NCBI GenBank assembly: GCA_020632595.1
Contig: JACKFF010000006.1
Coordinates: 1,460 to 65,459, forward strand
Source of the DNA: Nitrospiraceae bacterium
GTDB lineage: Bacteria; Nitrospirota; Nitrospiria; Nitrospirales; UBA8639
Direction of reading: 5' to 3'
DNA length: 64,000 nucleotides
The position numbers were made by a program, and so were the translations under genes. Each line of letters opens with the position of its first letter. Positions within the stretch are counted from its first letter, which is position 1. Of the stretch, positions 46,001 through 63,716 are shown in pieces. The notes below the pieces were generated by a model. The model saw only the letters and a list, made by a program, of their open reading frames with translations, was not told where the DNA came from and ran no database searches.

Positions 46001-47224
46001 GTGGGTTCAATGAAGCAGATGCCGACGGAAAAGGTCCTCGAAATGAACACGCCTCCCGGCGATCCCCTGTATACCATTCTCATTGTGGATGATGAAACGG
46101 TTGTGCGGATGGTTGCCAAGAAGCGTTTGGCCAAACTGCCCTGTCGATTATTAGAGGCAGGTAGCGGGGAAGAGGCGCTAGTCATCCTGGATCACGAGCC
46201 GGTGGATCTCATCCTGTCGGATTGGGTCATGCCCGGTCTTGATGGTCCCGGACTTTGTGAAGCGATTAAACAGGATGAACGCTATCGCACGATCCATTTT
46301 ATCCTGATGACGGCATTGGACCATCCGACACAAATTGCCGAAGGGCTCAGCCGGGGAGCCGACGACTTTCTTTCCAAAACCGATTCCGATCATGAAATTG
46401 TCGCCAGAGTGTGCGCGGGGCTTCGAGCGCGACAGTTGATGACGTATGTGGAAAAGTCTAATCGGTTGTTATCACAAAAGCAGGCCGAATTAGATTCTGA
46501 GCTCCGTTCGGCCTCCACCTTTGTGCGTAGTCTGCTTCCCCGGACCGGGGAAGTGATTCCTGGAGTGCGGGTGGAGTGGGAATTTTTGCCGTCTTCGCAT
46601 TTGGGGGGAGATTTCTTTCAGATCGCCCGATGGGGGGACGACCATCTCGGTCTTATGGTGTTGGATATGTCGGGTCATGGAATCGGGCCGGCGTTGCGGG
46701 CCGTATCGTTATCTCTGCTTTTCAAGGGAGACCACATGCAACAATTGTTTCCCTCCTACGATCCAGGTGAGATTCTGACGAGTCTGAACCAACAATATCC
46801 CATGAGCGATGACGGGGAGTACTTCACGATCTGGATTGGGGTATGGCAATGCTCCACCCGCCTCCTTCGATATGCGAGTGCGGGGCATCCCGGTTCCATT
46901 ATTGTGAAAACCGACCGGTCCTCGATGGTGTTAGGCGAAAAATCCTGGCCCATTGGTTTTTCGCGTAACGAAGTGTATGGAACTAATTCCATCTCCGTGA
47001 AGCCGGGGGACCGGATGTATCTCTATAGTGATGGGATTTATGAGGTGATGAATCCTCAGGAAGAGATCTGGGGGAAAAAAAGACTTCGGAAGGCCCTTGA
47101 GGCGGTTGCCGGCCAGCCGATGCAGTCGGGATTATCCCGTATTATCGAGCAGAGCCGGGCATGGAATGCCAAAGGCGGGTTTGAGGATGACGTTGCGTTA
47201 CTTGGAGTGGAGTTTTATACGTGA
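46001..47224 (+). CDS. response-regulator receiver fused to PP2C (SpoIIE/RsbU-type) phosphatase
   Basis: REC (ILIVDDE...ILSDWVMPGLDG...LSKT), then a PP2C block (GGDFFQI...VLDMSGHGIGPAL...YLYSDGIYE...EDDVALLGVEF). Confidence 0.85.
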   Translation: MGSMKQMPTEKVLEMNTPPGDPLYTILIVDDETVVRMVAKKRLAKLPCRLLEAGSGEEALVILDHEPVDLILSDWVMPGLDGPGLCEAIKQDERYRTIHFILMTALDHPTQIAEGLSRGADDFLSKTDSDHEIVARVCAGLRARQLMTYVEKSNRLLSQKQAELDSELRSASTFVRSLLPRTGEVIPGVRVEWEFLPSSHLGGDFFQIARWGDDHLGLMVLDMSGHGIGPALRAVSLSLLFKGDHMQQLFPSYDPGEILTSLNQQYPMSDDGEYFTIWIGVWQCSTRLLRYASAGHPGSIIVKTDRSSMVLGEKSWPIGFSRNEVYGTNSISVKPGDRMYLYSDGIYEVMNPQEEIWGKKRLRKALEAVAGQPMQSGLSRIIEQSRAWNAKGGFEDDVALLGVEFYT

Positions 47225-47293
47225 GGCCATAGCAGCAAGATACCCCTTTAGCCGGAAGATTCACCTCTCATGTTCTACCCTGACACCTCACGC
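47219..47293 (+). repeat. intergenic hairpin element (REC-PP2C / REC-kinase spacer)
   Basis: The stop codon is embedded in ACGTGAGGCC. Pyrimidine arm TTCACCTCTCATGTTCTACCCTGACACCTCACGC. Confidence 0.5.
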
Positions 47294-47308
47294 TTGGCGG
47301 TTGTCGAA

Positions 47309-48286
47309 ATGGCAGGTATGACAAACACTGTCTCCCGAATCCTCTTAGTAGACGATGATGCGTCAAATCTGGATGTTCTAGTCGAATGTCTGAAGGATGA
47401 ACCCTATGAACTTGTTCAGGCCCAGAATGGGGAAGAGGCCTTAACGCATTTGCGAAAGGATGGCCAAGAATTTCATGCCATGGTGTTGGATCGAATGATG
47501 CCGGGGATGAATGGTCTTGATCTTTTGGGGCATCTGAAAGCTGATGAGCGGCTTCAATGGCTTCCGGTTGTGATGCAAACCGCAGCCGGATCTCCCCAAG
47601 AAATAGGCGAAGGGATTGAAGCGGGAGTCTTTTTTTATCTCATTAAGCCCTTTGACCAGCGGCTCCTTTTGCGGATTGTCAACGCCGCGGTTGAGGAGGG
47701 ATTGAAATGGAAACGGATATGCCGAAATCTGCACCAACAGTCTCAGATTGTTGAATTGTTGCAGCAAGGCCGTTTTCACGTTCGTACCATGGAAGAGGCG
47801 TATGATCTGGCATTCCTATTGGGGCGAGCTTGCCCCAATGCAGAAAAAGTTGTGTTCGGGCTAAATGAACTCTTGGCGAATGGCGTGGAGCATGGAAATT
47901 TGGGAATCGGGTTCGATGAAAAAACGGTCCTGCAGGCAAAGGGAACATGGGAGAAAGAAATTCAACATCGGTCTGGGCTGCCTGAGTATGTCCATAAGGT
48001 GGTCGACGTGTTGTTTGAACGGTGTCAGGATTGCATCCAGATCACCATCACGGACCAAGGTTCGGGTTTCGACTGGCGGAAGTATGAACAGATCAACCCG
48101 GACCGAATTTTGGAAAGTCACGGAAGGGGTATTGCGATGGCCAAGGCCCTAAGTTTCTCACGGATCGAGTATCGAGGGAAAGGCAATCAGGTCGTGTGTG
48201 TCATCAAGACTGACTCCCCGATCGGTGATGAAGGGAACTCTTTCGCATCTGAACCGATGGCCGTTCACAAATCGAATCGGGCGTGA
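47309..48286 (+). CDS. response-regulator receiver fused to an RsbW/SpoIIAB-like HATPase (anti-sigma-type serine kinase) domain
   Basis: REC (ILLVDDD...VLDRMMPGMNG...LIKPF), then ELLANGVEHGN...ITITDQGSGFD...HGRGIAMAK. ATG 47309 or 47318. Confidence 0.75.
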   Translation: MAGMTNTVSRILLVDDDASNLDVLVECLKDEPYELVQAQNGEEALTHLRKDGQEFHAMVLDRMMPGMNGLDLLGHLKADERLQWLPVVMQTAAGSPQEIGEGIEAGVFFYLIKPFDQRLLLRIVNAAVEEGLKWKRICRNLHQQSQIVELLQQGRFHVRTMEEAYDLAFLLGRACPNAEKVVFGLNELLANGVEHGNLGIGFDEKTVLQAKGTWEKEIQHRSGLPEYVHKVVDVLFERCQDCIQITITDQGSGFDWRKYEQINPDRILESHGRGIAMAKALSFSRIEYRGKGNQVVCVIKTDSPIGDEGNSFASEPMAVHKSNRA

Positions 48287-51168: not shown

Positions 51169-53274
51169 ATGGCAGTTGATCTTTCACGGTTTCAAGAGTC
51201 ATTTTTTACTGAATCCGCAGAACATGTCGAAACCATCGAATCCGGTTTGTTGGCGTTAGAGCAACGTCCGAACGACCTGGACTTATTGAACCGAATTTTT
51301 CGGGGCGCTCATTCGATTAAAGGCAATGCGGGGATGTTTCATTTTACGGCCATTGCCGAGTTGACTCACAAAATGGAAAACATTCTGGATGACCTCCGGA
51401 ATGAAAAAATGCCGGTGACCCCTCACATCATCGATGTGCTGTTACGGGCGCTGGACGGATTAAAAAACCTTTTGGATGCGGCGCAGGGAGGTGAGGCAGC
51501 AGATGAGGCGGCCATTCACGTCCTAGAAGGTGAGCTGGATGCCTGTCAGAAAGGAAGGCCCGCTTCTGCACAGGAGGGGGCTTTTGCTGAAACCGGTCCC
51601 CAGGCTTTTCCACTTCAAGCCGCCACGTGGCGAAGGGTCCAGATTGATTGGAGTGCCTTGCCGGAATTATTTCAACGAGGGATGGATCCCGCCCAGATTT
51701 TCAAGGAACTGCATGAGTTGGGTATGGTGAAGACGCTGCATGTGCGAACCGACGGTCTTCCGGCTTTGGATGCACTCGATCCAGAACGGTGTTATCTCGG
51801 TTGGAGGGTGGAATTGGAAACGGATGCTCCTATCGCCCAGATCGAGGAGGTGTTTGCGTTTGTCCGAGATGGGAGCGAGTTAGCCATCATCGATTGCGCA
51901 CCGAAAAAACCGGAACCCTATAAACGGGTGGGGGATATTCTGGTGGAAGAAGGCGTGGTGACTCCGGAGCAAATCGCCGAAAGCCTGGCCAAGCAAAAGC
52001 CTCTTGGCGAAATTCTGGTGGAAGAGAAAAAGGCGTCTCCCCAACAAGTCCATCAAGCGCTGCAGAAGCAGCAGCAATTGAAAAAAAATGAGGTGGCATC
52101 TATTCGGGTCGATACGGAAAAGATCGATAAATTAATCAATCTGGTGGGGGAATTGGTGATTACGCAATCGATGATTACCGACCTGAGTGAGAAGTTTACC
52201 CTCGCGCAGCTCCCGGTTCTCCAGGAACGGATAACCCAATTGGAACGTAATACCCGGGAGATACAAGAACGGGTCATGTCCATTCGAATGATGCCGATCG
52301 GAAGTGCCTTCCACCGATTCCCGCGGTTGGTTCGGGATCTCGCAGGGAAAAGCGGCAAGCAGATTCAATTGGTCATGTCAGGAGAGGAAACCGAGTTGGA
52401 TAAAACGCTGATCGAGGCGATTGGCGACCCGCTCACCCATCTGGTTCGCAATTCAGCCGATCATGGGTTGGAGTTACCCGAAGAACGGGTGGCTCAAGGC
52501 AAACCGGAACGAGGAACCATTCGTCTCCATGCGTATCACGATGGCGGCAATATTTGTATTGCCGTGGAGGATGACGGGCGAGGGCTGAACCGGGAAAAGA
52601 TCATTAAAAAAGCCATCGAAAAAGGGATCATTGCCGATGGCAGCAATATGTCGGATGAAGCCGTGTATCAACTGATTTTTCGGCCTGGATTTTCCACGGC
52701 AGAGACCATCACCGATGTGTCAGGTCGAGGGGTGGGGATGGATGTGGTGAAGCGGAATATCGAGGGTCTTGGCGGGTCAGTGGACATTCAGAGCACGATG
52801 GGAAAAGGTTCTCGCCTCACGCTGAAATTGCCGCTTACGCTGGCCATTATTGACGGGATGACCGTCCGGGTCGGTCAGGATAACTACATTATCCCGCTTA
52901 TTGCGGTCACCGAATCCATTCGCCCTAAACCCAATGAGTTGCAACGGATTGTGGGAAAAGGCGAGGTGGTCAATCTTCGTGGAGAATGGGTGCCGGTGGT
53001 CAAGCTCTATGAGGCGTTTGCCCTCACGCCAGACTTTACCGATCCCTCGCAGGCTTTGTTGGTGATCGTGGAAACCGATGGCCGGCGATTGGCCGTGCTC
53101 GTGGATGAACTGACGGGGCAACAACAAGTGGTCATTAAGAGTTTGGAACAAAATTATCGCAAGGTCGAGGCTATTTCCGGAGCCACCATTCTGGGGGACG
53201 GACAGGTCGCGTTGATTTTGGATGTGCCGGGATTGGCCAAATTGGCACGGGTTGGCCACATTGCGGCGGCATAA
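51169..53274 (+). CDS. cheA: chemotaxis histidine kinase CheA
   Basis: HPt FRGAHSIKGNAGMF, dimerisation and HATPase domains (HLVRNSADHG, DDGRGL, GRGVGMDVV), and a CheW-like C-terminus. Confidence 0.95.
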   Translation: MAVDLSRFQESFFTESAEHVETIESGLLALEQRPNDLDLLNRIFRGAHSIKGNAGMFHFTAIAELTHKMENILDDLRNEKMPVTPHIIDVLLRALDGLKNLLDAAQGGEAADEAAIHVLEGELDACQKGRPASAQEGAFAETGPQAFPLQAATWRRVQIDWSALPELFQRGMDPAQIFKELHELGMVKTLHVRTDGLPALDALDPERCYLGWRVELETDAPIAQIEEVFAFVRDGSELAIIDCAPKKPEPYKRVGDILVEEGVVTPEQIAESLAKQKPLGEILVEEKKASPQQVHQALQKQQQLKKNEVASIRVDTEKIDKLINLVGELVITQSMITDLSEKFTLAQLPVLQERITQLERNTREIQERVMSIRMMPIGSAFHRFPRLVRDLAGKSGKQIQLVMSGEETELDKTLIEAIGDPLTHLVRNSADHGLELPEERVAQGKPERGTIRLHAYHDGGNICIAVEDDGRGLNREKIIKKAIEKGIIADGSNMSDEAVYQLIFRPGFSTAETITDVSGRGVGMDVVKRNIEGLGGSVDIQSTMGKGSRLTLKLPLTLAIIDGMTVRVGQDNYIIPLIAVTESIRPKPNELQRIVGKGEVVNLRGEWVPVVKLYEAFALTPDFTDPSQALLVIVETDGRRLAVLVDELTGQQQVVIKSLEQNYRKVEAISGATILGDGQVALILDVPGLAKLARVGHIAAA

Positions 53275-53417: not shown

Positions 53418-53957
53418 ATGACCACCGCAACGGCTGAACCGACAGAACAACGCTCGATTCGAACGACGTATGCCAGCGACGATCAACAATATCTGACCTT
53501 CAATCTGGCGGATGAATATTACGGAGTGGATATTCTGAAAGTACAGGAGATTAAGGGATACACCACGGTGACCAGGATCCCCAATACCCCTGACTTTCTT
53601 AAAGGGGTGCTCAATCTTCGGGGCACAATTGTGCCCATTGTGGATCTTCGCATGAAATTCGGCATGGGGGTGACCGAACCCACGTCGTTCACCGTGGTGG
53701 TTGTGGTCAATGTCCGGAATCGTGTGATGGGCTTTCTGGTTGATGCGGTGTCTGATGTGTTGGATATGAATGCCAAGGATATTCAGGCCCCTCCGGACAT
53801 GGGCACCTCGGTCGATGTCACGTTTATCGCCGGCATCGGTAATGCCCAGGATCGCTTAGTGACCCTGTTGGATATTGATCGGGTTCTCACGGAGGAGGAA
53901 GTCGTCGTCGTGGAAAACATTCAAGACTTGGAAGAAAAACCTGAGGTCCATGACTGA
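53418..53957 (+). CDS. cheW: chemotaxis coupling protein CheW
   Basis: YLTFNLADEYYGVDILKVQEIKGY...NLRGTIVPIVDLR. Confidence 0.9.
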   Translation: MTTATAEPTEQRSIRTTYASDDQQYLTFNLADEYYGVDILKVQEIKGYTTVTRIPNTPDFLKGVLNLRGTIVPIVDLRMKFGMGVTEPTSFTVVVVVNVRNRVMGFLVDAVSDVLDMNAKDIQAPPDMGTSVDVTFIAGIGNAQDRLVTLLDIDRVLTEEEVVVVENIQDLEEKPEVHD

Positions 53958-54034: not shown

Positions 54035-56272
54035 ATGAACAGGATGGTGAACACAAATTTCAGTTTGGGGATTGCAACCAAGTTGGTGGTGTTGTTCGCC
54101 ATCTTTGGCATAGTGCCGATGGCCGCGGTGGGGTATTTAGGGGCTTCCGCTACGGGGGAAATGGAAACAGCCGCCGGACTGCGCGTGCAAGCGATGGCTG
54201 AGACCATTGGAGATAAAATCGACCGTAATTTATTCGAACGGTATGGGGATCCTCAATCCTTTGGTCTTAATAGGATCGTGGGTGAGCGCTACCATTGGTA
54301 CAGCAAGGAGAATAATGCGATAGCGAGTGCCATGAATCAATATGTCGCGACTTCCGGAATTTATTATTTGACGATATTGGTAGATCCTGCTGGAGATGTC
54401 ATGGCTGTGAACTCAAAGGATGCCAAAGGGAATCCGATCGACACCACGGCAATTTATTCAAAAAAATATACGGACGCTCCCTGGTTTAAGGCGGTGGAAG
54501 CGAAAGAATTTACCACAAGACAACCCTTTACGAGCCCCGGCAATGATACGGCGACCGGGACCTACATTGAAGACGTTCATGTCGATGAAGATGTGAAGTC
54601 GGTGTATTTGGGAGATGACGGGTTGACCTTGGGTTTTTCTGCTCCGGTGTATGTGGATGGCGATTTGATCGGGTATTGGACCAATCGGGTCAAATTTTCT
54701 TTGGTGGAAGAAATCGTGCAATCCGCTTATCAAGAGCTTAAAGGGGCCGGATGGATGGGGTCGGAAATTTCTCTGCTCGGAGATAAGGGGCAGGTCATCG
54801 TGGATTTTGATCCCTCCAATCAAGGCACAGAGGACATGACCCATGATTTTGAAAAGACGTTGTTTAAACTCAATCTGGCAGACAATGGAGTAGAAACGGC
54901 AAAATTCGCCGTTGCTGGAAAAACAGGCTATCAATTAGCCCTCCATGATGAGAAGAACATCTGGCAAATGGGTGGCTATACCCATCTGAAAGGCGCCTTA
55001 GGCTATCCGGGTATGAATTGGTCTGTCCTGGTGAGAGTTCCTAAAGCCGAAGCCACTGCTGCGGCCATTGCATTTAATCGAGATTTAACCATTACCGCCA
55101 TTATTTGTCTGGTTCTGATTTTGGTCGTTGGATTGTGGGTTGGTCGTCGTGGTGCAAATAATCTGGTTCAAATTAGCGAAGTGGCTCAACGGGCGGCCGA
55201 TGGAGATTTGAGTCGGCGGGTCACCGTGATGTCCAATGATGAATTGGGAACCATGGGCAAGGCGATGAATGTCATGTTGGATAATTTGGTGAGAGTGGTA
55301 TCGGAAGTCCGCCAGGCTGCGGAACATGTCTCTATCGCATCAGGTGAAATCACCCAAGGTAATGAAGATCTCTCGCAACGCACCTCGGCTCAGGCAGGCG
55401 CCTTGGAGGAGACCAGCGCGTCGATGGAAGAGATGACGTCCACCATCAAGCAAAATGCCGATAACGCCAAGCAGGCCAACCAATTAGCGGTGGCCGCCCG
55501 GGAAGTGGCAGAGAAGGGGGGCGCGGTCACGGACAAGGCTGTGGTGGCCATGGATGAGATTAATAAGAGCAGCAAGAAGATCGCGGATATTATTAACGTG
55601 ATCGACGAAATCGCGTTTCAGACAAACCTTTTGGCACTCAATGCTGCCGTGGAAGCTGCACGCGCAGGTGAACAAGGCCGGGGTTTTGCTGTGGTGGCCT
55701 CGGAAGTGCGAAATCTGGCACAACGTTCGGCCTCGGCTGCCAAGGAGATCAAGACACTGATCAATGAATCGGTGCAAAAAGTTGGTGACGGCAGCGAGTT
55801 AGTGAATCGCTCGGGCCAGACGCTGGGCGAGATTGTGAATTCGGTTAAACGAGTCACGGATATTATTTCGGAAATCAGTGCGGCCTCCCAGGAGCAGGCT
55901 GCGGGGATCGATCAGGTGAACAAGTCGGTGATGCAGATGGATCAGGGCACGCAGCAGAATGCGGCCTTGGTAGAGGAAGCTACGTCGGCTTCCCAATCCA
56001 TGAAGCAGCAAGCGACTGAACTGTTGAATCAAGTCGCATTTTTTAAATTAGAAGATACAGAACAAAAACGGGTTGCAGGGACACAACCCGGATCGGGAGC
56101 CAAGGTTGCGCTTTCAAGTGGCAATAATTCCTCCGCCATGAGTAAGCCTTTACATTCAGTGAAGGGTGTCCTCCCTCCAAAGGCCACGGCGAAGACTCAA
56201 CCGGTTGGCGTGGGCAGTTCGAATGGCCATGACCGCCGTCAACGTCAGGATGATTTTTTTGAAGAGTTTTAG
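54035..56272 (+). CDS. methyl-accepting chemotaxis protein with a ~300-aa periplasmic (Cache-like?) domain and HAMP
   Basis: Two TMs, HAMP ([19 protein letters not shown]), the signalling domain, and a C-terminal DDFFEEF. Confidence 0.9.
55379..56047 (+). repeat. 669-nt signalling-domain block, copy 1 (paralogous to 57367-58035)
   Basis: Encoded peptides are almost identical ([55 protein letters not shown]...). DNA differs mostly at synonymous sites. Confidence 0.9.
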
Positions 56273-56410: not shown

Positions 56411-56460
56411 ACATTGAGGCAGGCAAGTTTGTTTATTTATCAAATAAGATAGGAGGTCGC

Positions 56461-58269
56461 ATGGGTAAAGTATGGAACTCAATAGGCATCGGTCCAAAGG
56501 TGGTGATGACTATTATGGTGGTCTTTTCAAGTTTACTTGCAGGGGGAGCGTATTTGCTCGGACAGCAATTGCATTCCGATCTTGAACGGGTCTTGTCCGA
56601 TCAGGCGTATATTGTTCAAAAGCAAATTGAGGTCACTCGTGCCTATGTGACCAAAGAGTTTGTGGTGAAAGCCAAGGCGGCTGGGATGAATACCGGGGTT
56701 GACCATAGTGCTCCCGATACGGTTCCCTTTCCGGCCACATTTGCTCGTGAAACCTCTGAAATATTGGCTGAGGAAGGCGTGTTTAATGCCAGGATCGTGA
56801 GTCTCTCGCCCCTGAATCCCAAAAATGCTCCGCAAGATTCCTTTGAGAAAGACGCCCTAGCTGCCCTGGCTGCCGGCCAAAAAGAATTTACCAGAAACGA
56901 TACCGTGAATGGGAAAATGATGTTCCGCCGTGCGACCCAGGATTTGGCGACGGTCCAAGCCTGCATCGGCTGTCATGAGGGCAAAAAAATCGGGGAAATG
57001 CTGGGAGCTGTATCGGTACAGATTCCCATGGATGGTCCCGCTGCCCAATTACAAGGGAATCTCAGTAATATGTATATGGGGATTCTGGCCGTGGGCTTGT
57101 TGATGATGGGGCTGTTGTATCTGATGATTGCGAAGTTGGTGGTCAAGCCGATGAAGAGTCTGGAGTCCATGGCGGAGCGAGCCAAGGAAGGAGATCTCAC
57201 CGGTCGGGCCAGCGTGAACAGTCAGGATGAAATCGGTCGAACCAGTGAATCGTTTAATATGATGTTTGACCGGGTGAGTGAAGTCATTGGGTCTGTCAAA
57301 ACAGCTGTTTCCGGCATTACGACCGGGACTTCCGAGATAAATGCAGGAACCTCCGATCTTGCCGGGCGAACCTCGGCGCAAGCAGGAGCCCTGGAAGAAA
57401 CCAGTGCGTCCATGGAAGAGATGACCTCTACCATTAAACAGAATGCGGATAACGCCAAACAGGCGAACCAATTGGCGGTGGCCGCCCGGGAAGTGGCGGA
57501 GAAGGGTGGCGCGGTCACGGACAAGGCCGTGGAGGCCATGGATGAAATCAATAAGAGCAGCAAGAAGATCGCGGATATTATTAATGTGATCGACGAAATC
57601 GCGTTTCAAACGAATCTCTTAGCTTTGAATGCAGCGGTGGAAGCGGCACGGGCGGGCGAGCAGGGACGAGGTTTTGCGGTAGTGGCTTCGGAAGTGCGAA
57701 ATCTGGCGCAACGTTCTGCCACGGCGGCCAAGGAGATTAAGACGCTGATCAACGAATCGGTGCAAAAAGTTGGCGGTGGCAGTGAGTTGGTCAATCGCTC
57801 GGGCCAGACGCTGGCCGAAATTGTGAACTCGGTCAAACGGGTCACGGATATTATTTCAGAAATCAGTGCGGCTTCCCAGGAGCAGGCGGCGGGGATTGAT
57901 CAAGTGAACAAGGCGGTGATGCAGATGGACCAAGGCACACAACAAAATGCGGCCTTGGTGGAACAGGCGACTTCAGCGTCCCAATCGATGGCGCAACAAG
58001 CTGAGGATCTGTTGCGGCAGGTCGAGTTTTTCAAGGTCCAGACTGAGTTCGGGACTCAACGTTCTGAGCCTATGGCAAAAACCGGCTCATCCGTTCACGC
58101 TCAATCGACGAGCGGAACGGGGTCTCAATATTCTCGTGCGGCCTCGTCTATGACTGGTAAAGCTCAGGGAAAGCATTTCCCCACTAAAAAAGAGGTCGCT
58201 GTGGGTGTTGGGAGTTCGGGGTCCAACGGGCATAAAAAGCCAGGGGATGATTTTTTTGAAGAATTTTAG
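56461..58269 (+). CDS. methyl-accepting chemotaxis protein whose periplasmic domain is a Tll0287/DUF3365-like c-type heme module
   Basis: TM1, a ~190-aa periplasmic region with CIGCH (CxxCH) followed by [10 protein letters not shown]2, HAMP ([18 protein letters not shown]), the signalling domain, and a DDFFEEF tail. Confidence 0.85.
57367..58035 (+). repeat. 669-nt signalling-domain block, copy 2
   Basis: See 55379-56047. Confidence 0.9.
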
Positions 58270-58497: not shown

Positions 58498-59043
58498 ATG
58501 ATTATGAGGAGATGGACTGTATTTTCACTAATGTTTGTCATGTTAGGTCTTGGCTTTGCCTTGGTTGCGCCGCTAGGTCTAGCCGCAGACGCGGCTAAGG
58601 AAATGGCGGCCAAGTACATCTTGGCTACCTCTAAGGCTGCCAGAACCGTGTATGTCAAGGGGATTATGGCCGACGCGACCAAAGGTGGAATGAAACCGTC
58701 TGAAGATTGGGTGAAGGATGACCACGGCATGATGCTGCCGGCTCAGTTCGTGAAAGAACTCGGGAAAGAAATAAAGGAGTTTGATTTGTCTTTGGTTGGG
58801 ACCGATCCCTTGTATGCCTCCAATGCCGCGAAAAGTGCCAAGGAAAAGGACATGCTCGCGGAATTAGCCAAAGGAAAAGAAAAAGTATTAGTGGCGGAAG
58901 ATGGCGGAGTGACGGTCGGTATGTCGGCCGATTATGCTATCGCGGACATTTGTGCTGATTGCCATAACTCACACCCAAAAACCACCAAAAAAGATTGGAA
59001 GAAGGGTGATTTTATGGGAGCCATTGTGGTGCGACTGAGATAA
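58498..59043 (+). CDS. periplasmic Tll0287/DUF3365-like c-type heme protein
   Basis: Signal peptide (WTVFSLMFVMLGLGFALVAPLGLAADA), CADCH heme-binding motif, then GAIVVRL. GGAGGAGG precedes the start (ATG 58498 or 58504). Confidence 0.7.
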   Translation: MIMRRWTVFSLMFVMLGLGFALVAPLGLAADAAKEMAAKYILATSKAARTVYVKGIMADATKGGMKPSEDWVKDDHGMMLPAQFVKELGKEIKEFDLSLVGTDPLYASNAAKSAKEKDMLAELAKGKEKVLVAEDGGVTVGMSADYAIADICADCHNSHPKTTKKDWKKGDFMGAIVVRLR

Positions 59044-59108
59044 TAAAGTTTTAAGATCATTTTCTTGAGAGAGGCTGGGAGGGCTTAGATGCTTTCCTCG
59101 CCTTTCTC
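58931..59108 (+). repeat. direct repeat A (3' end of the heme-protein gene plus downstream hairpin)
   Basis: Aligns by eye at ~80% with 61514-61697, including a long identical core AAAAAAGATTGGAAGAAGGGTGATTTTATGGGAGCCATTGT. Confidence 0.8.
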
Positions 59109-59725: not shown

Positions 59726-60466
59726 ATGAGCCGAAAGAAATTTCTCTCTGCAGTTTTTTTCCTGATTGCTCTCCTCGCGCCTGTCATAGTATTTGCAGGG
59801 GCCGATGTGGTTGAAACAGGCCGCCTCCTGGCTATTCTGCTTGACGCCGGGCGTGGGGCAGTCGCGGCCAACCAGCCCCTGATCAATGATGCGAGCAAGG
59901 GAGACAAGGGGTTCACGCCTGATGTGTTTGCCCAGCAACTCGCGGAGAAATTTAAGGCCCGAGCCAGCGTGGATTTGGGTAATCTGAAAGGGAGCGGCGT
60001 TCCCGAGATGGCGCAAAAGCTGCTGCTGGAACTCGTTGAAGCCGCAAAAAAGACGGTCGCCAACAACCAGGATAAAATCAATAAGCCCGGTGTCGCGTAT
60101 AAGGGCTTTACACCGGCCCATTTCGGGACGCAGACCGCTACTTTGTTCAGCGAAAAAAGCGGTATTTACATGAAACAAACGACAACAGATGCGTTACTCC
60201 GAAATCCGAAGAATAAGGCAGATGACTTTGAGTCCGGGATGATGAAAAAATTCGGCGATTCCGCTTATCCACGCCAGGGGGACAAGATCGCGAGCGAGAC
60301 AACCGACGGAGCCGTGCGTGTGATGTTGCCCTTGTTCTATGGGAAAGGTTGCATGGGTTGCCACGGTGGTCCCAAAGGTGAAATGGATGTTTCCGGCTAC
60401 AAAAAAGAAGGGGCCAAGGAAGGCGACCTTGGAGGGGCAGTCAGCGTGAAGCTTCCCGCCAAATAA
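59726..60466 (+). CDS. periplasmic Tll0287/DUF3365-like c-type heme protein (second paralog)
   Basis: Signal peptide (FLSAVFFLIALLAPVIVFAGA), CMGCH motif, then GGAVSVKLP. AAGGAGG lies upstream of ATG 59726. Confidence 0.7.
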   Translation: MSRKKFLSAVFFLIALLAPVIVFAGADVVETGRLLAILLDAGRGAVAANQPLINDASKGDKGFTPDVFAQQLAEKFKARASVDLGNLKGSGVPEMAQKLLLELVEAAKKTVANNQDKINKPGVAYKGFTPAHFGTQTATLFSEKSGIYMKQTTTDALLRNPKNKADDFESGMMKKFGDSAYPRQGDKIASETTDGAVRVMLPLFYGKGCMGCHGGPKGEMDVSGYKKEGAKEGDLGGAVSVKLPAK

Positions 60467-60696: not shown

Positions 60697-61461
60697 ATGC
60701 GCGCCTTAGCATCCCTGTTGTTCATTGCGGTTTTGACTGTTGTGTCCTTTGGCTTGACATGGGCGGCCGATGCCCCTATTTTTGGCACCTTTGCCCTGTT
60801 TGAGGTGGATAAAGATTGGGGAAATTTGTCGGTGGAAGAAAGGCAAAAAGGAGGGGAGGAGGCGAAAGCCCTGTTGGAATCAATCAAAAATCAGGTCACC
60901 GTGGATGGCTATTGGACCTATGGGTTGACAACGGAATCTCATTTTATGCTTCGGCTGCATTCCGCCGACCTCAAAGCCAATCAGCAATTAATGACTCAAC
61001 TCCGGAGTACTCGCCTCGGCCGACATTTGAATTTGGAATACACCGTCAGTGGAGTGACCAAAAGTTTAAATTATGCGCCGGATTTTCCGGAATTGTTGGA
61101 AAAGTTGAAAGCAGCGAAATACAAAGGAGATCCGTCGACATATGCAATTATGATCCCGGTTCGGAAAAATGCCGAATGGTGGAATCTGCCTAAAGAAGAA
61201 CGTGTGGCGCTGATGAAAGAGCATACCATTCCCACTGTGGCCTATTTAGAAACAGTCAAACGGAAATTGTACCATTCCACCGGGATTTCAGACGTGGATT
61301 TTTTAACATATTTTGAAACAAATAGTTTGATTGAATTCAATGATCTGGTCATTGCGTTGCGGATGGTTCGGGAGGATAGCTTCAATGTTCAGCTCGGAGA
61401 GCCGACGATCATTGGCACACTGAAAAACTGGAATGAGATTGTGGATCTCCTTATGAAATAG
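60697..61461 (+). CDS. cld: chlorite dismutase (Nitrospira-type, periplasmic)
   Basis: Signal peptide ending TWA/AD. YAIMIPVRKNAEWWNLPKEERVALMKEHT...TVKRKLYHSTGISDVDFLTYFET matches the remembered N. defluvii Cld. The proximal His (EHT) and the distal Arg 13 residues later (VKRK) are present. Confidence 0.85.
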   Translation: MRALASLLFIAVLTVVSFGLTWAADAPIFGTFALFEVDKDWGNLSVEERQKGGEEAKALLESIKNQVTVDGYWTYGLTTESHFMLRLHSADLKANQQLMTQLRSTRLGRHLNLEYTVSGVTKSLNYAPDFPELLEKLKAAKYKGDPSTYAIMIPVRKNAEWWNLPKEERVALMKEHTIPTVAYLETVKRKLYHSTGISDVDFLTYFETNSLIEFNDLVIALRMVREDSFNVQLGEPTIIGTLKNWNEIVDLLMK

Positions 61462-61513: not shown

Positions 61514-61630
61514 GATTATATTGCCTGAAGGTGACAATTGTGCCGATTGCCATAACAAACACCCCAAAACTACCAAAAAAGATTGGAAGAAGGGTGATTT
61601 TATGGGAGCCATTGTTGTCAGACTGAAATA
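61514..61630 (+). pseudogene. remnant of a Tll0287-like heme-protein gene (C-terminal ~35 codons only)
   Basis: Reads ..GDNCADCHNKHPKTTKKDWKKGDFMGAIVVRLK*, a copy of the C-terminus of the 58498..59043 gene. No upstream coding continuation. Confidence 0.65.
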
Positions 61631-61697
61631 ATTTCGTTTTACGACCAATCGTCTTGAGAAAGGGCGGGGAGGGTATCACAACCTTCCTCGCCTTTTT
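61514..61697 (+). repeat. direct repeat B (partner of 58931-59108)
   Basis: See repeat A. Confidence 0.8.
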
Positions 61698-62045: not shown

Positions 62046-62133
62046 GGAAGGGTGAGTAGCAAGGCGTAAAGGGGATGTGCGGTGTTTTTTTCACGACTCC
62101 TTCCTGTTCACTCCTCACTATCAATCCCTTTAC
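62046..62133 (+). repeat. hairpin element in the cheR leader (2)
   Basis: GGAAGGGTGAGTAGCAAGGCGTAAAGGGGATGTG ... CACGACTCCTTCCTGTTCACTCCTCACTATCAATCCCTTTAC. Confidence 0.55.
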
Positions 62134-62168
62134 TTTTTGTTTTGGATCAATTGACGATAAAGGACAAT

Positions 62169-63008
62169 ATGATGACGGCAACGTTGACTGATAATGAATT
62201 TGAACAGTTTAAACACTTAATTTATCAGCAGGTCGGTATTACGCTCGATGCCCCAAAAAAAACGCTCTTAGTTTCTCGTTTGGGGAAACGGCTTCGGGAT
62301 CTTCACCTTTCCTCGTATCAGGCGTATTACGACTGTGTGAGCGGGAAAGGCGGGGAAGAAGAGTTGATGAAGTTGTTGGATCTTGTGTCAACGAATAAAA
62401 CTGATTTTTATCGGGAGCCTGTGCATTTTGATTTTCTCCGCGACCAGGTTCTTTCAGAGGTGCAATCGGCCAAGACCTTGAGAATTTGGTCTTCCGCGTC
62501 CTCTTCCGGGGAAGAACCCTATACGATTGCCATGACCCTGTCTGATGGCATTGCCGATATTAATCGATGGGACATCAAAATTCTCGCCTCCGATATTTCT
62601 ACGCGGGTATTGGCAAAGGCTTCCTCGGGTATCTATGAGGAAGAGCGGGTGAGTCAACTTCCCATTGATTTGGTGAAACGACATTTTCTCCGTGGGAAAG
62701 GCCCGCAAGCGGGAAAGCTGCAGGTGCGCCCTCAGATCGCGCGTCTTGTGGCCTTTCGACGGATAAATTTGATGGACCCGACCTTTCCTATACGGAGTCA
62801 ATTGGATGTAATCTTTTGTCGGAATGTTATGATTTATTTTGATCGTCCCACGCAAGCCAAACTCATGGAGAAGTTTTTCCGATATCTCCGCCCTGGTGGA
62901 TATTTGTTTATCGGACATTCAGAAAGTTTGCAGTGGATCGACCATCAATTTACATATCTGCGCCCGACCATTTATCAAAAACCGATCAGCGTGAAAAGTG
63001 AGGCGTAG
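62169..63008 (+). CDS. cheR: chemotaxis methyltransferase CheR
   Basis: FEQFKHLIYQQVGI...TDFYREP...IWSSASSSGEEPYTIAM...IFCRNVMIYFD. Confidence 0.9.
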   Translation: MMTATLTDNEFEQFKHLIYQQVGITLDAPKKTLLVSRLGKRLRDLHLSSYQAYYDCVSGKGGEEELMKLLDLVSTNKTDFYREPVHFDFLRDQVLSEVQSAKTLRIWSSASSSGEEPYTIAMTLSDGIADINRWDIKILASDISTRVLAKASSGIYEEERVSQLPIDLVKRHFLRGKGPQAGKLQVRPQIARLVAFRRINLMDPTFPIRSQLDVIFCRNVMIYFDRPTQAKLMEKFFRYLRPGGYLFIGHSESLQWIDHQFTYLRPTIYQKPISVKSEA

Positions 63009-63107: not shown

Positions 63108-63716
63108 ATGTCATCTACAGGATTGATGGAATTTGGGCATATTCGGCGAATGCAGGATACCCGCTTCCCCTACGAAGTGGCCGTCATTCTCCCAGGTGAA
63201 TATTTTGTAAGCCGGGAGCCCAAAGTCGTCTATACGGTATTAGGTTCCTGTATCTCAGTGTGTCTGCGAGATCCAGAAGCCGGCGTGGGAGGGATGAATC
63301 ATTTCATGTTAGCAGCTCCTTCCAATATTGAAGGACACGATAATTGGGCAGATTCGGGACGATACGGGAGCTTTGCCATGGAAATGCTGATGAACGATAT
63401 TTTCAAGCGCGGCGGAAAAAAAGACCGCCTCGAAGCGAAAGTCTTTGGCGGGGGAAAGATTTATGATGGCACCATCGATATTGGGGCCCAAAATGCCGCT
63501 TGGGCTCTCGCCTTTTTGGAACAGGAGGGTCTGTCGCCTATTAAAGCCGATGTCGGAGATGTCTGTCCTCGGAAGGTGTACTATTTCACCGATTCGGGAA
63601 AAGTGCTCATGAAAAAACTCGACCGTGTCGTGGCGAGTGCGATTGCGCAGGAGGAGGGGCAGTATCGGAAGAAACTTCAACATGCTCCTGTGCAGTCGGA
63701 CGTCACACTTTTTTGA
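63108..63716 (+). CDS. cheD: chemoreceptor glutamine deamidase CheD
   Basis: TVLGSCISVCLRDPEAGVGGMNHFMLA...KVFGGG. Confidence 0.9.
   Translation: MSSTGLMEFGHIRRMQDTRFPYEVAVILPGEYFVSREPKVVYTVLGSCISVCLRDPEAGVGGMNHFMLAAPSNIEGHDNWADSGRYGSFAMEMLMNDIFKRGGKKDRLEAKVFGGGKIYDGTIDIGAQNAAWALAFLEQEGLSPIKADVGDVCPRKVYYFTDSGKVLMKKLDRVVASAIAQEEGQYRKKLQHAPVQSDVTLF

Follow-up and report, generated by a model that had tools for sequence, protein, structure and literature searches.

A stretch of 64,000 nucleotides from a Nitrospiraceae bacterium (GenBank assembly GCA_020632595.1, contig JACKFF010000006.1, positions 1,460 to 65,459), which we analysed as a whole and call the window, encodes at 56461-58269 on the forward strand a methyl-accepting chemotaxis protein (MCP) of 602 residues (aa) with a predicted periplasmic sensor of the heme-binding Cache type. 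Sequence and predicted structure together leave us confident that this domain layout, a heme-Cache sensor mounted on an MCP, is correct. We tentatively favor, as the best overall explanation, a transmembrane heme-Cache chemoreceptor of the Nitrospirales that has nitric oxide (NO) as its signal and CheA/CheW as its output. The original prediction from this DNA, a chemoreceptor with a periplasmic c-type heme sensor of the Tll0287/DUF3365 type, is borne out by the profile match, the invariance of the heme motif, the topology, the predicted fold and the structural neighbors of the domain.

The sensor domain and its heme motif

The full open reading frame opens further upstream, at a TTG (56362), and direct reading of the sequence places an AGGAGG 4 nt before the ATG at 56461. 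Since this motif precedes the ATG, and the resulting 602 aa plus stop fit the length of the orthologues (596-605 aa), it is a credible start for the heme MCP. The predicted order of elements in the protein is a first transmembrane helix (TM1), a periplasmic loop, a second transmembrane helix (TM2), a HAMP domain and the MCP signalling domain. By Kyte-Doolittle hydropathy the helices fall at approximately aa 12-34 and aa 203-227, with Lys residues on their cytoplasmic sides, and the loop between them (aa 35-202) is predicted to be extracytoplasmic, as the maturation of c-type heme requires. The whole protein has only two Cys residues, both within the CIGCH motif at aa 168-172. Of the module of about 190 aa with a single CxxCH that had been proposed, the single CxxCH thus stands, while the loop measures 168 aa.

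In Pfam searches the full-length protein matches PF11845 (Tll0287-like) over aa 41-189 (E=3.5e-16; 60 bits versus a cut-off of 24.1), and with the isolated periplasmic loop this hidden Markov model, the one named beforehand as the test of the assignment, is the sole match (E=1.7e-18). The isolated loop gave no match to the four-helix-bundle (4HB), dCache or cofactor-free sCache families of Pfam, even at E<=10. The claim that the receptor carries neither a Cache nor a 4HB domain is correct as far as Pfam matches go, but its Cache part fails under the current classification of the family, as well as on the structural matches described below. A recent family-wide analysis of DUF3365/Tll0287 (Deshpande, Xing, Gumerov, Crane and Zhulin, bioRxiv 10.64898/2026.02.01.703092) moved the Tll0287-like domain from the PAS fold to a single Cache domain with a heme insertion, named "sCache_heme". 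The same study found the CxxCH motif in at least 99% of family members, and fusions of the domain to histidine kinases, GGDEF/EAL proteins and, frequently, MCPs; the family was enriched in several phyla, Nitrospirota among them.

A word-indexed homologue search yielded only close and for the most part truncated relatives, and when run with a profile it was dominated by Nitrospira stand-alone proteins resembling sa2. An exhaustive search across 1.84 billion representative sequences recovered 3636 clusters at E<=1e-3. Among the best 150 of these 3636 matches, an MCP signalling domain is present in 58 of 148 new representatives, and others resemble histidine kinases or GGDEF proteins. Identity of the sensor to the wider sCache_heme family is only ~25-30%. 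C168, C171 and H172 are invariant both in an alignment of 100 relatives and in 51 Nitrospirales orthologues, a degree of conservation that, judged from these alignments, goes far beyond chance; in the 100-sequence alignment G182 is also invariant, and R60, P91, S114, R156 and D179 are nearly so. Two relatives of the sensor at 36% identity, P0012 (an MCP of 634 aa) and P0013 (470 aa), lack any CxxCH and may represent heme-Cache domains that have lost their heme. Apart from these two near relatives, nothing specific speaks for the notion that the domain binds no heme in this lineage and serves as an ordinary small-molecule Cache domain or a mere dimerisation module. We regard this notion as scarcely credible, given that the motif is retained in all 51 orthologues covering it, which span 38-96% identity, and throughout nearly the entire family, and that the domain has the predicted location in which c-type heme is matured.

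An AlphaFold2 (AF2) model built on the 100-sequence alignment has a predicted local distance difference test (pLDDT) score of 95.6 and consists of a long N-terminal helix and an alpha/beta core. In the model the CxxCH occupies a short helix (166-171) flanked by the last two strands (152-162 and 180-189), exactly at the insertion point published for sCache_heme (10.64898/2026.02.01.703092). When this model was compared with the PDB using Foldseek, the first match was Tll0287 of Thermosynechococcus (5B82; E=9e-6), in line with the comparison to Tll0287 that had been suggested at the outset. It was followed by the single-Cache domain of WalK, and the matches further included the Geobacter chemoreceptor sensors GSU0935 (3B42; E=1.3e-3, probability 0.99) and GSU0582 (3B47; E=0.08), along with many other Cache sensors, such as TlpC, CHASE4, DctB, CitA and DcuS. 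At the sequence level, a 19-sequence profile also retrieved 5B82 from the PDB (E=1.4e-9). A single-sequence phmmer search of the PDB with the N-terminal 246 aa (the sensor with both TM helices) gave nothing meaningful, and neither the 19-sequence profile nor a query with a diverged relative reached GSU0582 or GSU0935 in the PDB at E<=1.

Tll0287, the best match both by profile and among solved structures, shares with the window domain an FRR motif, the CxxCH and a subsequent G-D-x-x-G motif. It is, however, a stand-alone protein with Cys68/His145 ligation of the heme, whereas the window domain is fused to a receptor and has Pro91 aligned with Cys68, with no Cys outside the CxxCH. Pro is found at this position in 97 of 99 relatives. 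The Nitrospirales orthologues are further set apart by His82, which is invariant in all 51 of them, whereas just 18% of the wider family have His at this position. A small hairpin that carries His82 at its tip immediately precedes the PATF helix, the first residue of which replaces the Cys ligand of Tll0287, and because of this position His82 could line or ligate the distal side of the heme. Arg111 and Arg157 are the other residues, besides those conserved family-wide, that are invariant in the 51 orthologues. Position 94 is Met in 31% of relatives and Phe or Ala in the Nitrospirales orthologues (Phe in the window receptor), and the helix spanning residues 35-75 of the sensor contains no Met.

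The signalling half and its place in the chemotaxis operon

The cytoplasmic part contains HAMP and MCPsignal domains recognized by Pfam (Table 1), with the conserved hairpin tip present, and matches Tar/Tsr-type NCBIfam models without gaps over ~340 aa. A motif scan found four matches to the methylation consensus ([ASTG]2-x2-[EQ]2-x2-[ASTG]2), at aa 308, 315, 469 and 497. At the extreme C-terminus, after a variable linker of ~68 aa, an xFEEF pentapeptide occurs in 42 of the 47 orthologues that can be read to a stop codon; variants are FFEEY in locus L017 and FFDQF in L018 and L019, and the pentapeptide is absent from L044, L052, L053 and L056. To go by its sequence and position, this is a likely CheR/CheB tether. 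Orthologues of 768-945 aa are encoded in six loci (L023, L024, L042, L043, L048 and L055); in these a further 200-340 aa separate the sensor/HAMP region from the signalling domain.

The best genome matches come from metagenome-assembled genomes and isolates of Nitrospirales/Nitrospira, in which the sensor is 92-96% identical at the amino acid level, and the heme MCP is conserved in ~50 species-level genomes. The gene order cheA-cheW-MCP1(dCache-like)-hemeMCP-sa1-cheR-cheD, where sa1 encodes a secreted stand-alone heme-Cache protein, recurs in ~35 species-level Nitrospirales genomes; in more distant Nitrospira (43-47% identity) the order cheW-hemeMCP-cheR-cheD is kept and sa1 is absent. Given this place in the che operon, the xFEEF pentapeptide, the methylation-consensus sites and the Tar/Tsr-length cytoplasmic part, the heme MCP has the traits expected of a receptor in the main flagellar pathway, probably one served by tethered CheR. 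The tandem MCPs of the window have signalling domains that are 86% identical in DNA over 649 nt, and both end in DDFFEEF, whereas their sensors are unrelated: the periplasmic domain of the upstream MCP is ~300 aa long and has only a sub-threshold match to dCache_1 (E=0.004).

Candidate signals

The idea that a heme-c sensor implies the perception of a gas, of redox state or of a small ligand outside the cytoplasm is supported in its core by both sequence and model. The accompanying remark that no characterised example was known turned out to be mistaken. DcrA of Desulfovibrio and GSU0582 and GSU0935 of Geobacter are characterised c-heme MCP sensors with redox-linked switching of spin state or ligand (PMC8396549), and signalling-type members of the family were characterised as NO binders in preprints of 2026. 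A literature search found no paper on this heme receptor in Nitrospira specifically.

Two biochemical types have been distinguished in the family (10.64898/2026.02.01.703092): a stand-alone member with Cys/His ligation behaves as a redox protein, and a signalling-type member without the Cys binds NO tightly (dissociation rate constant, koff, 6e-4 s-1), does not yield a stable complex with O2 and is quickly autoxidised. Binding of NO was furthermore reported to alter the cytoplasmic output of a signalling-type receptor (10.64898/2026.05.25.727664). The Cache_heme-HAMP receptor of Pseudomonas azotoformans, which belongs to the signalling "Cluster 2", resembles the window receptor in its profile match, the short-helix insertion with CxxCH, the single-Cache fold, the periplasmic site between two TM helices followed by HAMP, and the lack of an axial Cys. 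Its HAMP docks a Ser/Thr kinase, whereas the window receptor has a full MCP signalling domain feeding CheA, and the window receptor departs from the Cluster 2 type in its clade-specific invariant His82 and in belonging to an orthologue group known from sequence alone. By analogy with such receptors, NO is a plausible, if tentative, candidate for the physiological signal.

The c-type heme would be held by thioether bonds to Cys168 and Cys171, with His172 as the proximal ligand, and its distal side would be open or occupied only by a labile ligand, because the axial Cys of Tll0287 is absent and Pro91 stands in its place. If NO is the signal, it would bind at the distal side, possibly with a change in the oxidation state of the iron, and the altered coordination of the heme would be accompanied by an altered packing of the Cache domain against the long N-terminal helix. 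The change would be relayed via TM2 and HAMP to the signalling domain of Tar/Tsr length, which would control the CheA and CheW encoded just upstream, and hence flagellar rotation. Adaptation would make use of the four methylation-consensus sites; the xFEEF pentapeptide would recruit CheR, and CheD would take part as well.

Several considerations weigh against this reading. The assignment of NO is extrapolated from a single Pseudomonas protein that is at most ~25-30% identical and is not an MCP, and both the attachment of the heme and its ligand are predictions from sequence and model. The characterised heme MCPs, namely GSU0582, GSU0935 and DcrA, have been interpreted as redox or O2 sensors (PMC8396549). 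A ferrous heme would be expected to autoxidise in an aerobic nitrite oxidiser, which would make sensing through Fe(II)-NO harder; the Pseudomonas protein autoxidises quickly (10.64898/2026.02.01.703092). Finally, the clade-invariant His82, if it is the distal ligand, would yield a bis-His low-spin heme, which is more typical of redox proteins.

A second reading is a sensor of redox potential, i.e. an energy-taxis receptor, in which the heme iron would exchange electrons with redox carriers of the periplasm, or indirectly with O2 or the nitrite/nitrate couple, and a switch of spin state or distal ligand would be the signal, in keeping with proposals for GSU0582/GSU0935 and DcrA. The only characterised MCPs with such sensors have been read in this way; the Geobacter proteins are high spin when oxidised and low spin when reduced, with midpoint potentials (Em) of -156 and -251 mV, and they also bind NO and CO (PMC8396549). 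The two Geobacter proteins have been assigned to the sCache_heme family (10.64898/2026.02.01.703092), and their function was still described as unknown in the second preprint (10.64898/2026.05.25.727664). Crystal structures of their sensors exist (3B47 and 3B42), and the proteins have the layout of the window receptor, with TM, heme sensor, TM, HAMP and MCP domains in the same order. A relationship of the sensors is suggested by the Foldseek match to 3B42 and by the family assignment of the preprint, the sequences being too diverged for profiles. In favor of redox sensing are, besides these precedents and the structural match to GSU0935, the invariant His82 and the frequent Met154 and Met180 as possible switchable distal ligands, and the conserved adjoining secreted heme protein sa1, which would be co-transcribed with the receptor and could act as a redox mediator. 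On the other hand, GSU0935 has a distal Met60 that cannot be mapped onto the window receptor, as sequence profiles fall short of the GSU domains; nor can the swapped-dimer arrangement of the Geobacter sensors. Position 94, a Met in 31% of relatives, is Phe or Ala here, and the 2026 biochemistry gives redox roles to the Cys/His stand-alone type rather than to the signalling type (10.64898/2026.02.01.703092). The Geobacter proteins have low-potential hemes and come from anaerobic metal reducers, whereas the window organism is an aerobic nitrifier. DcrA of Desulfovibrio vulgaris, historically the first MCP found to have a covalent heme in its periplasmic domain and associated with O2/redox sensing, carries a cytoplasmic PAS domain that the window receptor lacks. 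On balance, and arguing by analogy, we consider redox sensing the chief alternative to NO, though rather unlikely.

The organism is a presumptive nitrite oxidiser, and in a third reading, already raised with the original prediction, nitrite or another small anion would be bound by the ferric heme, within a distal pocket of positive charge, and would draw the cell to its substrate. The invariance of Arg60, Arg111, Arg156, Arg157, Tyr62 and His82 among the orthologues and the place of the gene in the main che operon are compatible with this. Yet Arg60, Arg156 and Tyr62 are conserved family-wide, non-nitrifiers included, and their more likely role is to position the heme propionates or to maintain the fold, so that nitrite is left without support beyond the lifestyle of the organism. 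No family member has been reported to bind nitrite, neither of the 2026 preprints mentions such a test, and the upstream dCache-like MCP is a candidate nitrite receptor at least as good as the heme MCP. Nitrite as the ligand of the heme is accordingly improbable in our estimate. An oxygen (aerotaxis) sensor that binds O2 reversibly to ferrous heme would suit the often microaerophilic habit of Nitrospira. DcrA has been proposed to sense O2 or redox (PMC8396549), but the family members tested so far make superoxide instead of a stable oxy complex (10.64898/2026.02.01.703092), and we give this possibility very little credence.

Neighboring heme-Cache proteins and mosaic evolution

The flagellar/chemotaxis cluster of the window comprises flgE, fliM, fliP, fliR, flhB, flhA, flhF, a MinD-like gene, fliA, two response-regulator proteins, a soluble MCP, cheA, cheW, two MCPs, cheR and cheD. 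Table 1 lists the features of the receptor gene and its neighbors.

Table 1. Positions in the window of the heme MCP gene, its parts and neighboring genes
Feature	Position	Strand	Basis
Heme-Cache methyl-accepting chemotaxis protein	56461..58269	+	ORF with ATG start; Pfam Tll0287-like + HAMP + MCPsignal; length of Nitrospirales orthologues
Ribosome-binding site AGGAGG	56451..56456	+	Sequence
TM1 (aa 12-34)	56494..56562	+	Kyte-Doolittle; helical in AF2 model
Periplasmic sCache_heme (Tll0287-like/DUF3365) sensor (aa 35-202)	56563..57066	+	PF11845; AF2; Foldseek
His82, candidate distal-pocket residue	56704..56706	+	Invariant in 51 Nitrospirales orthologues
Pro91 (PATF motif), site of Tll0287 axial Cys68	56731..56733	+	Profile alignment to 5B82
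CIGCH, predicted c-heme attachment motif (Cys168, Cys171, proximal His172)	56962..56976	+	Invariance; AF2 helix position
TM2 (aa 203-227)	57067..57141	+	Hydropathy; AF2 model
HAMP domain (aa 223-273)	57127..57279	+	PF00672, E=1.8e-11
MCP signalling domain (aa 337-491)	57469..57933	+	PF00015, E=1.9e-56
Low-complexity flexible linker (aa 530-597)	58048..58251	+	Composition; poorly conserved among orthologues
C-terminal pentapeptide FFEEF (xFEEF), likely CheR/CheB tether	58252..58266	+	Sequence; orthologue conservation
cheA	51169-53274	+	Pfam; same operon, upstream of heme MCP
cheW	53418-53957	+	Pfam; same operon, upstream of heme MCP
Paralogous MCP, 745 aa, weakly dCache-like periplasmic domain	54035..56272	+	Pfam; DNA comparison
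sa1, secreted stand-alone heme-Cache protein, 181 aa, signal peptide, CADCH	58498..59043	+	PF11845, E=6e-11
sa2, second secreted stand-alone heme-Cache protein, 246 aa, CMGCH	59726..60466	+	PF11845, E=2e-20
cld, chlorite dismutase-family protein, signal peptide	60697..61461	+	PF06778, E=7e-33
cheR	62082-63008	+	Pfam; adaptation enzyme
cheD	63108-63716	+	Pfam; adaptation enzyme

The gene sa1 lies directly downstream of the heme MCP in ~35 Nitrospirales loci. Its product and that of sa2 both have Pro at the site of the axial Cys of Tll0287 and, in the mature protein, no Cys outside the CxxCH; for sa1 both features hold in 34 of 34 orthologues, in which a DH..MLPAQF motif is also invariant. In this respect the sequences of both proteins depart from the published rule that stand-alone members are of the Cys/His redox type. 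Conceivably, the heme MCP and sa1 are the two halves of one periplasmic sensing unit that is peculiar to a single clade of Nitrospirales. Soluble sa1 would then determine the state of the receptor heme, either as a redox relay or as a co-receptor loaded with ligand, and the unit would direct nitrite oxidisers towards partners producing NO or nitrite, such as ammonia oxidisers; we rate this as unlikely.

The pair formed by sa2 and cld looks like an insertion into the che operon, as several features of the segment indicate. A direct repeat of ~160 nt (58945-59105 and 61533-61695) brackets 2.59 kb containing the two genes; its first copy consists of the 3' end of sa1 plus ~60 nt, and its second is 87% and 73% identical to this over two parts. 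A 33-aa remnant of the sa1 tail (88% amino acid identity) follows cld, as it also does in L019, L026 and L031, while in most related genomes sa1 leads directly to cheR. The GC content, too, drops to 0.43-0.46 at 60.5-62.5 kb. At the corresponding place sa2 is found only in L019. A functional module of heme-Cache protein and chlorite dismutase-family protein was considered and dropped, as sa2-like proteins in other Nitrospira adjoin an OmpR-type two-component system instead. In three such loci (L071-L073), genes for an OmpR-type response regulator and a HAMP histidine kinase are followed immediately by one for a close relative of sa2 (253 aa), with PepSY and DUF2231 genes alongside. Some stand-alone heme-Cache proteins may therefore act together with two-component systems.

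Comparison of the receptor across loci shows a mosaic gene. In L031, identity to the window receptor reaches 89% in the fast-evolving C-terminal linker as well as in the signalling domain, but only 52-66% in the part from TM1 through the sensor to HAMP; in other loci with sensors of 64-67% identity, the linkers are only 26-34% identical. The sa1 protein of the window is 80% identical to that of L012, where neighboring genes are at 91-97%, and 93% identical to that of L031. The discordance between linker or signalling domain and sensor in L031, together with these sa1 identities, suggests that sensor modules have been exchanged by recombination between Nitrospirales lineages.

Elsewhere in the window, between fliA and the che genes (46001-48286), a fusion of a response regulator to a SpoIIE-type phosphatase and another of a response regulator to an anti-sigma-kinase-like HATPase_c_2 domain are encoded, which looks like a partner-switching module inside the flagellar cluster. 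A scan of 53-64 kb for promoters and terminators gave sites no more numerous than in shuffled sequence.

The heme MCP represents an uncharacterised orthologue group within a known class, and it introduces no new principle of sensing: earlier work has described the domain family as well as its fusion to MCPs and its binding of NO. Three points are modestly new. The gene holds a conserved position within the core che operon of the Nitrospirales, it is consistently paired with a gene for a secreted heme-Cache protein likewise devoid of the axial Cys, and His82 is invariant throughout the clade. As a conserved heme receptor, the protein offers a concrete candidate for NO or redox taxis in motile nitrite oxidisers. 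We may speculate that NO would tell a nitrite oxidiser of ammonia oxidisers or denitrifiers close by, or else act as a toxic repellent. Taxis to NO or redox state could explain how Nitrospira locate ammonia oxidisers and stay beside them.

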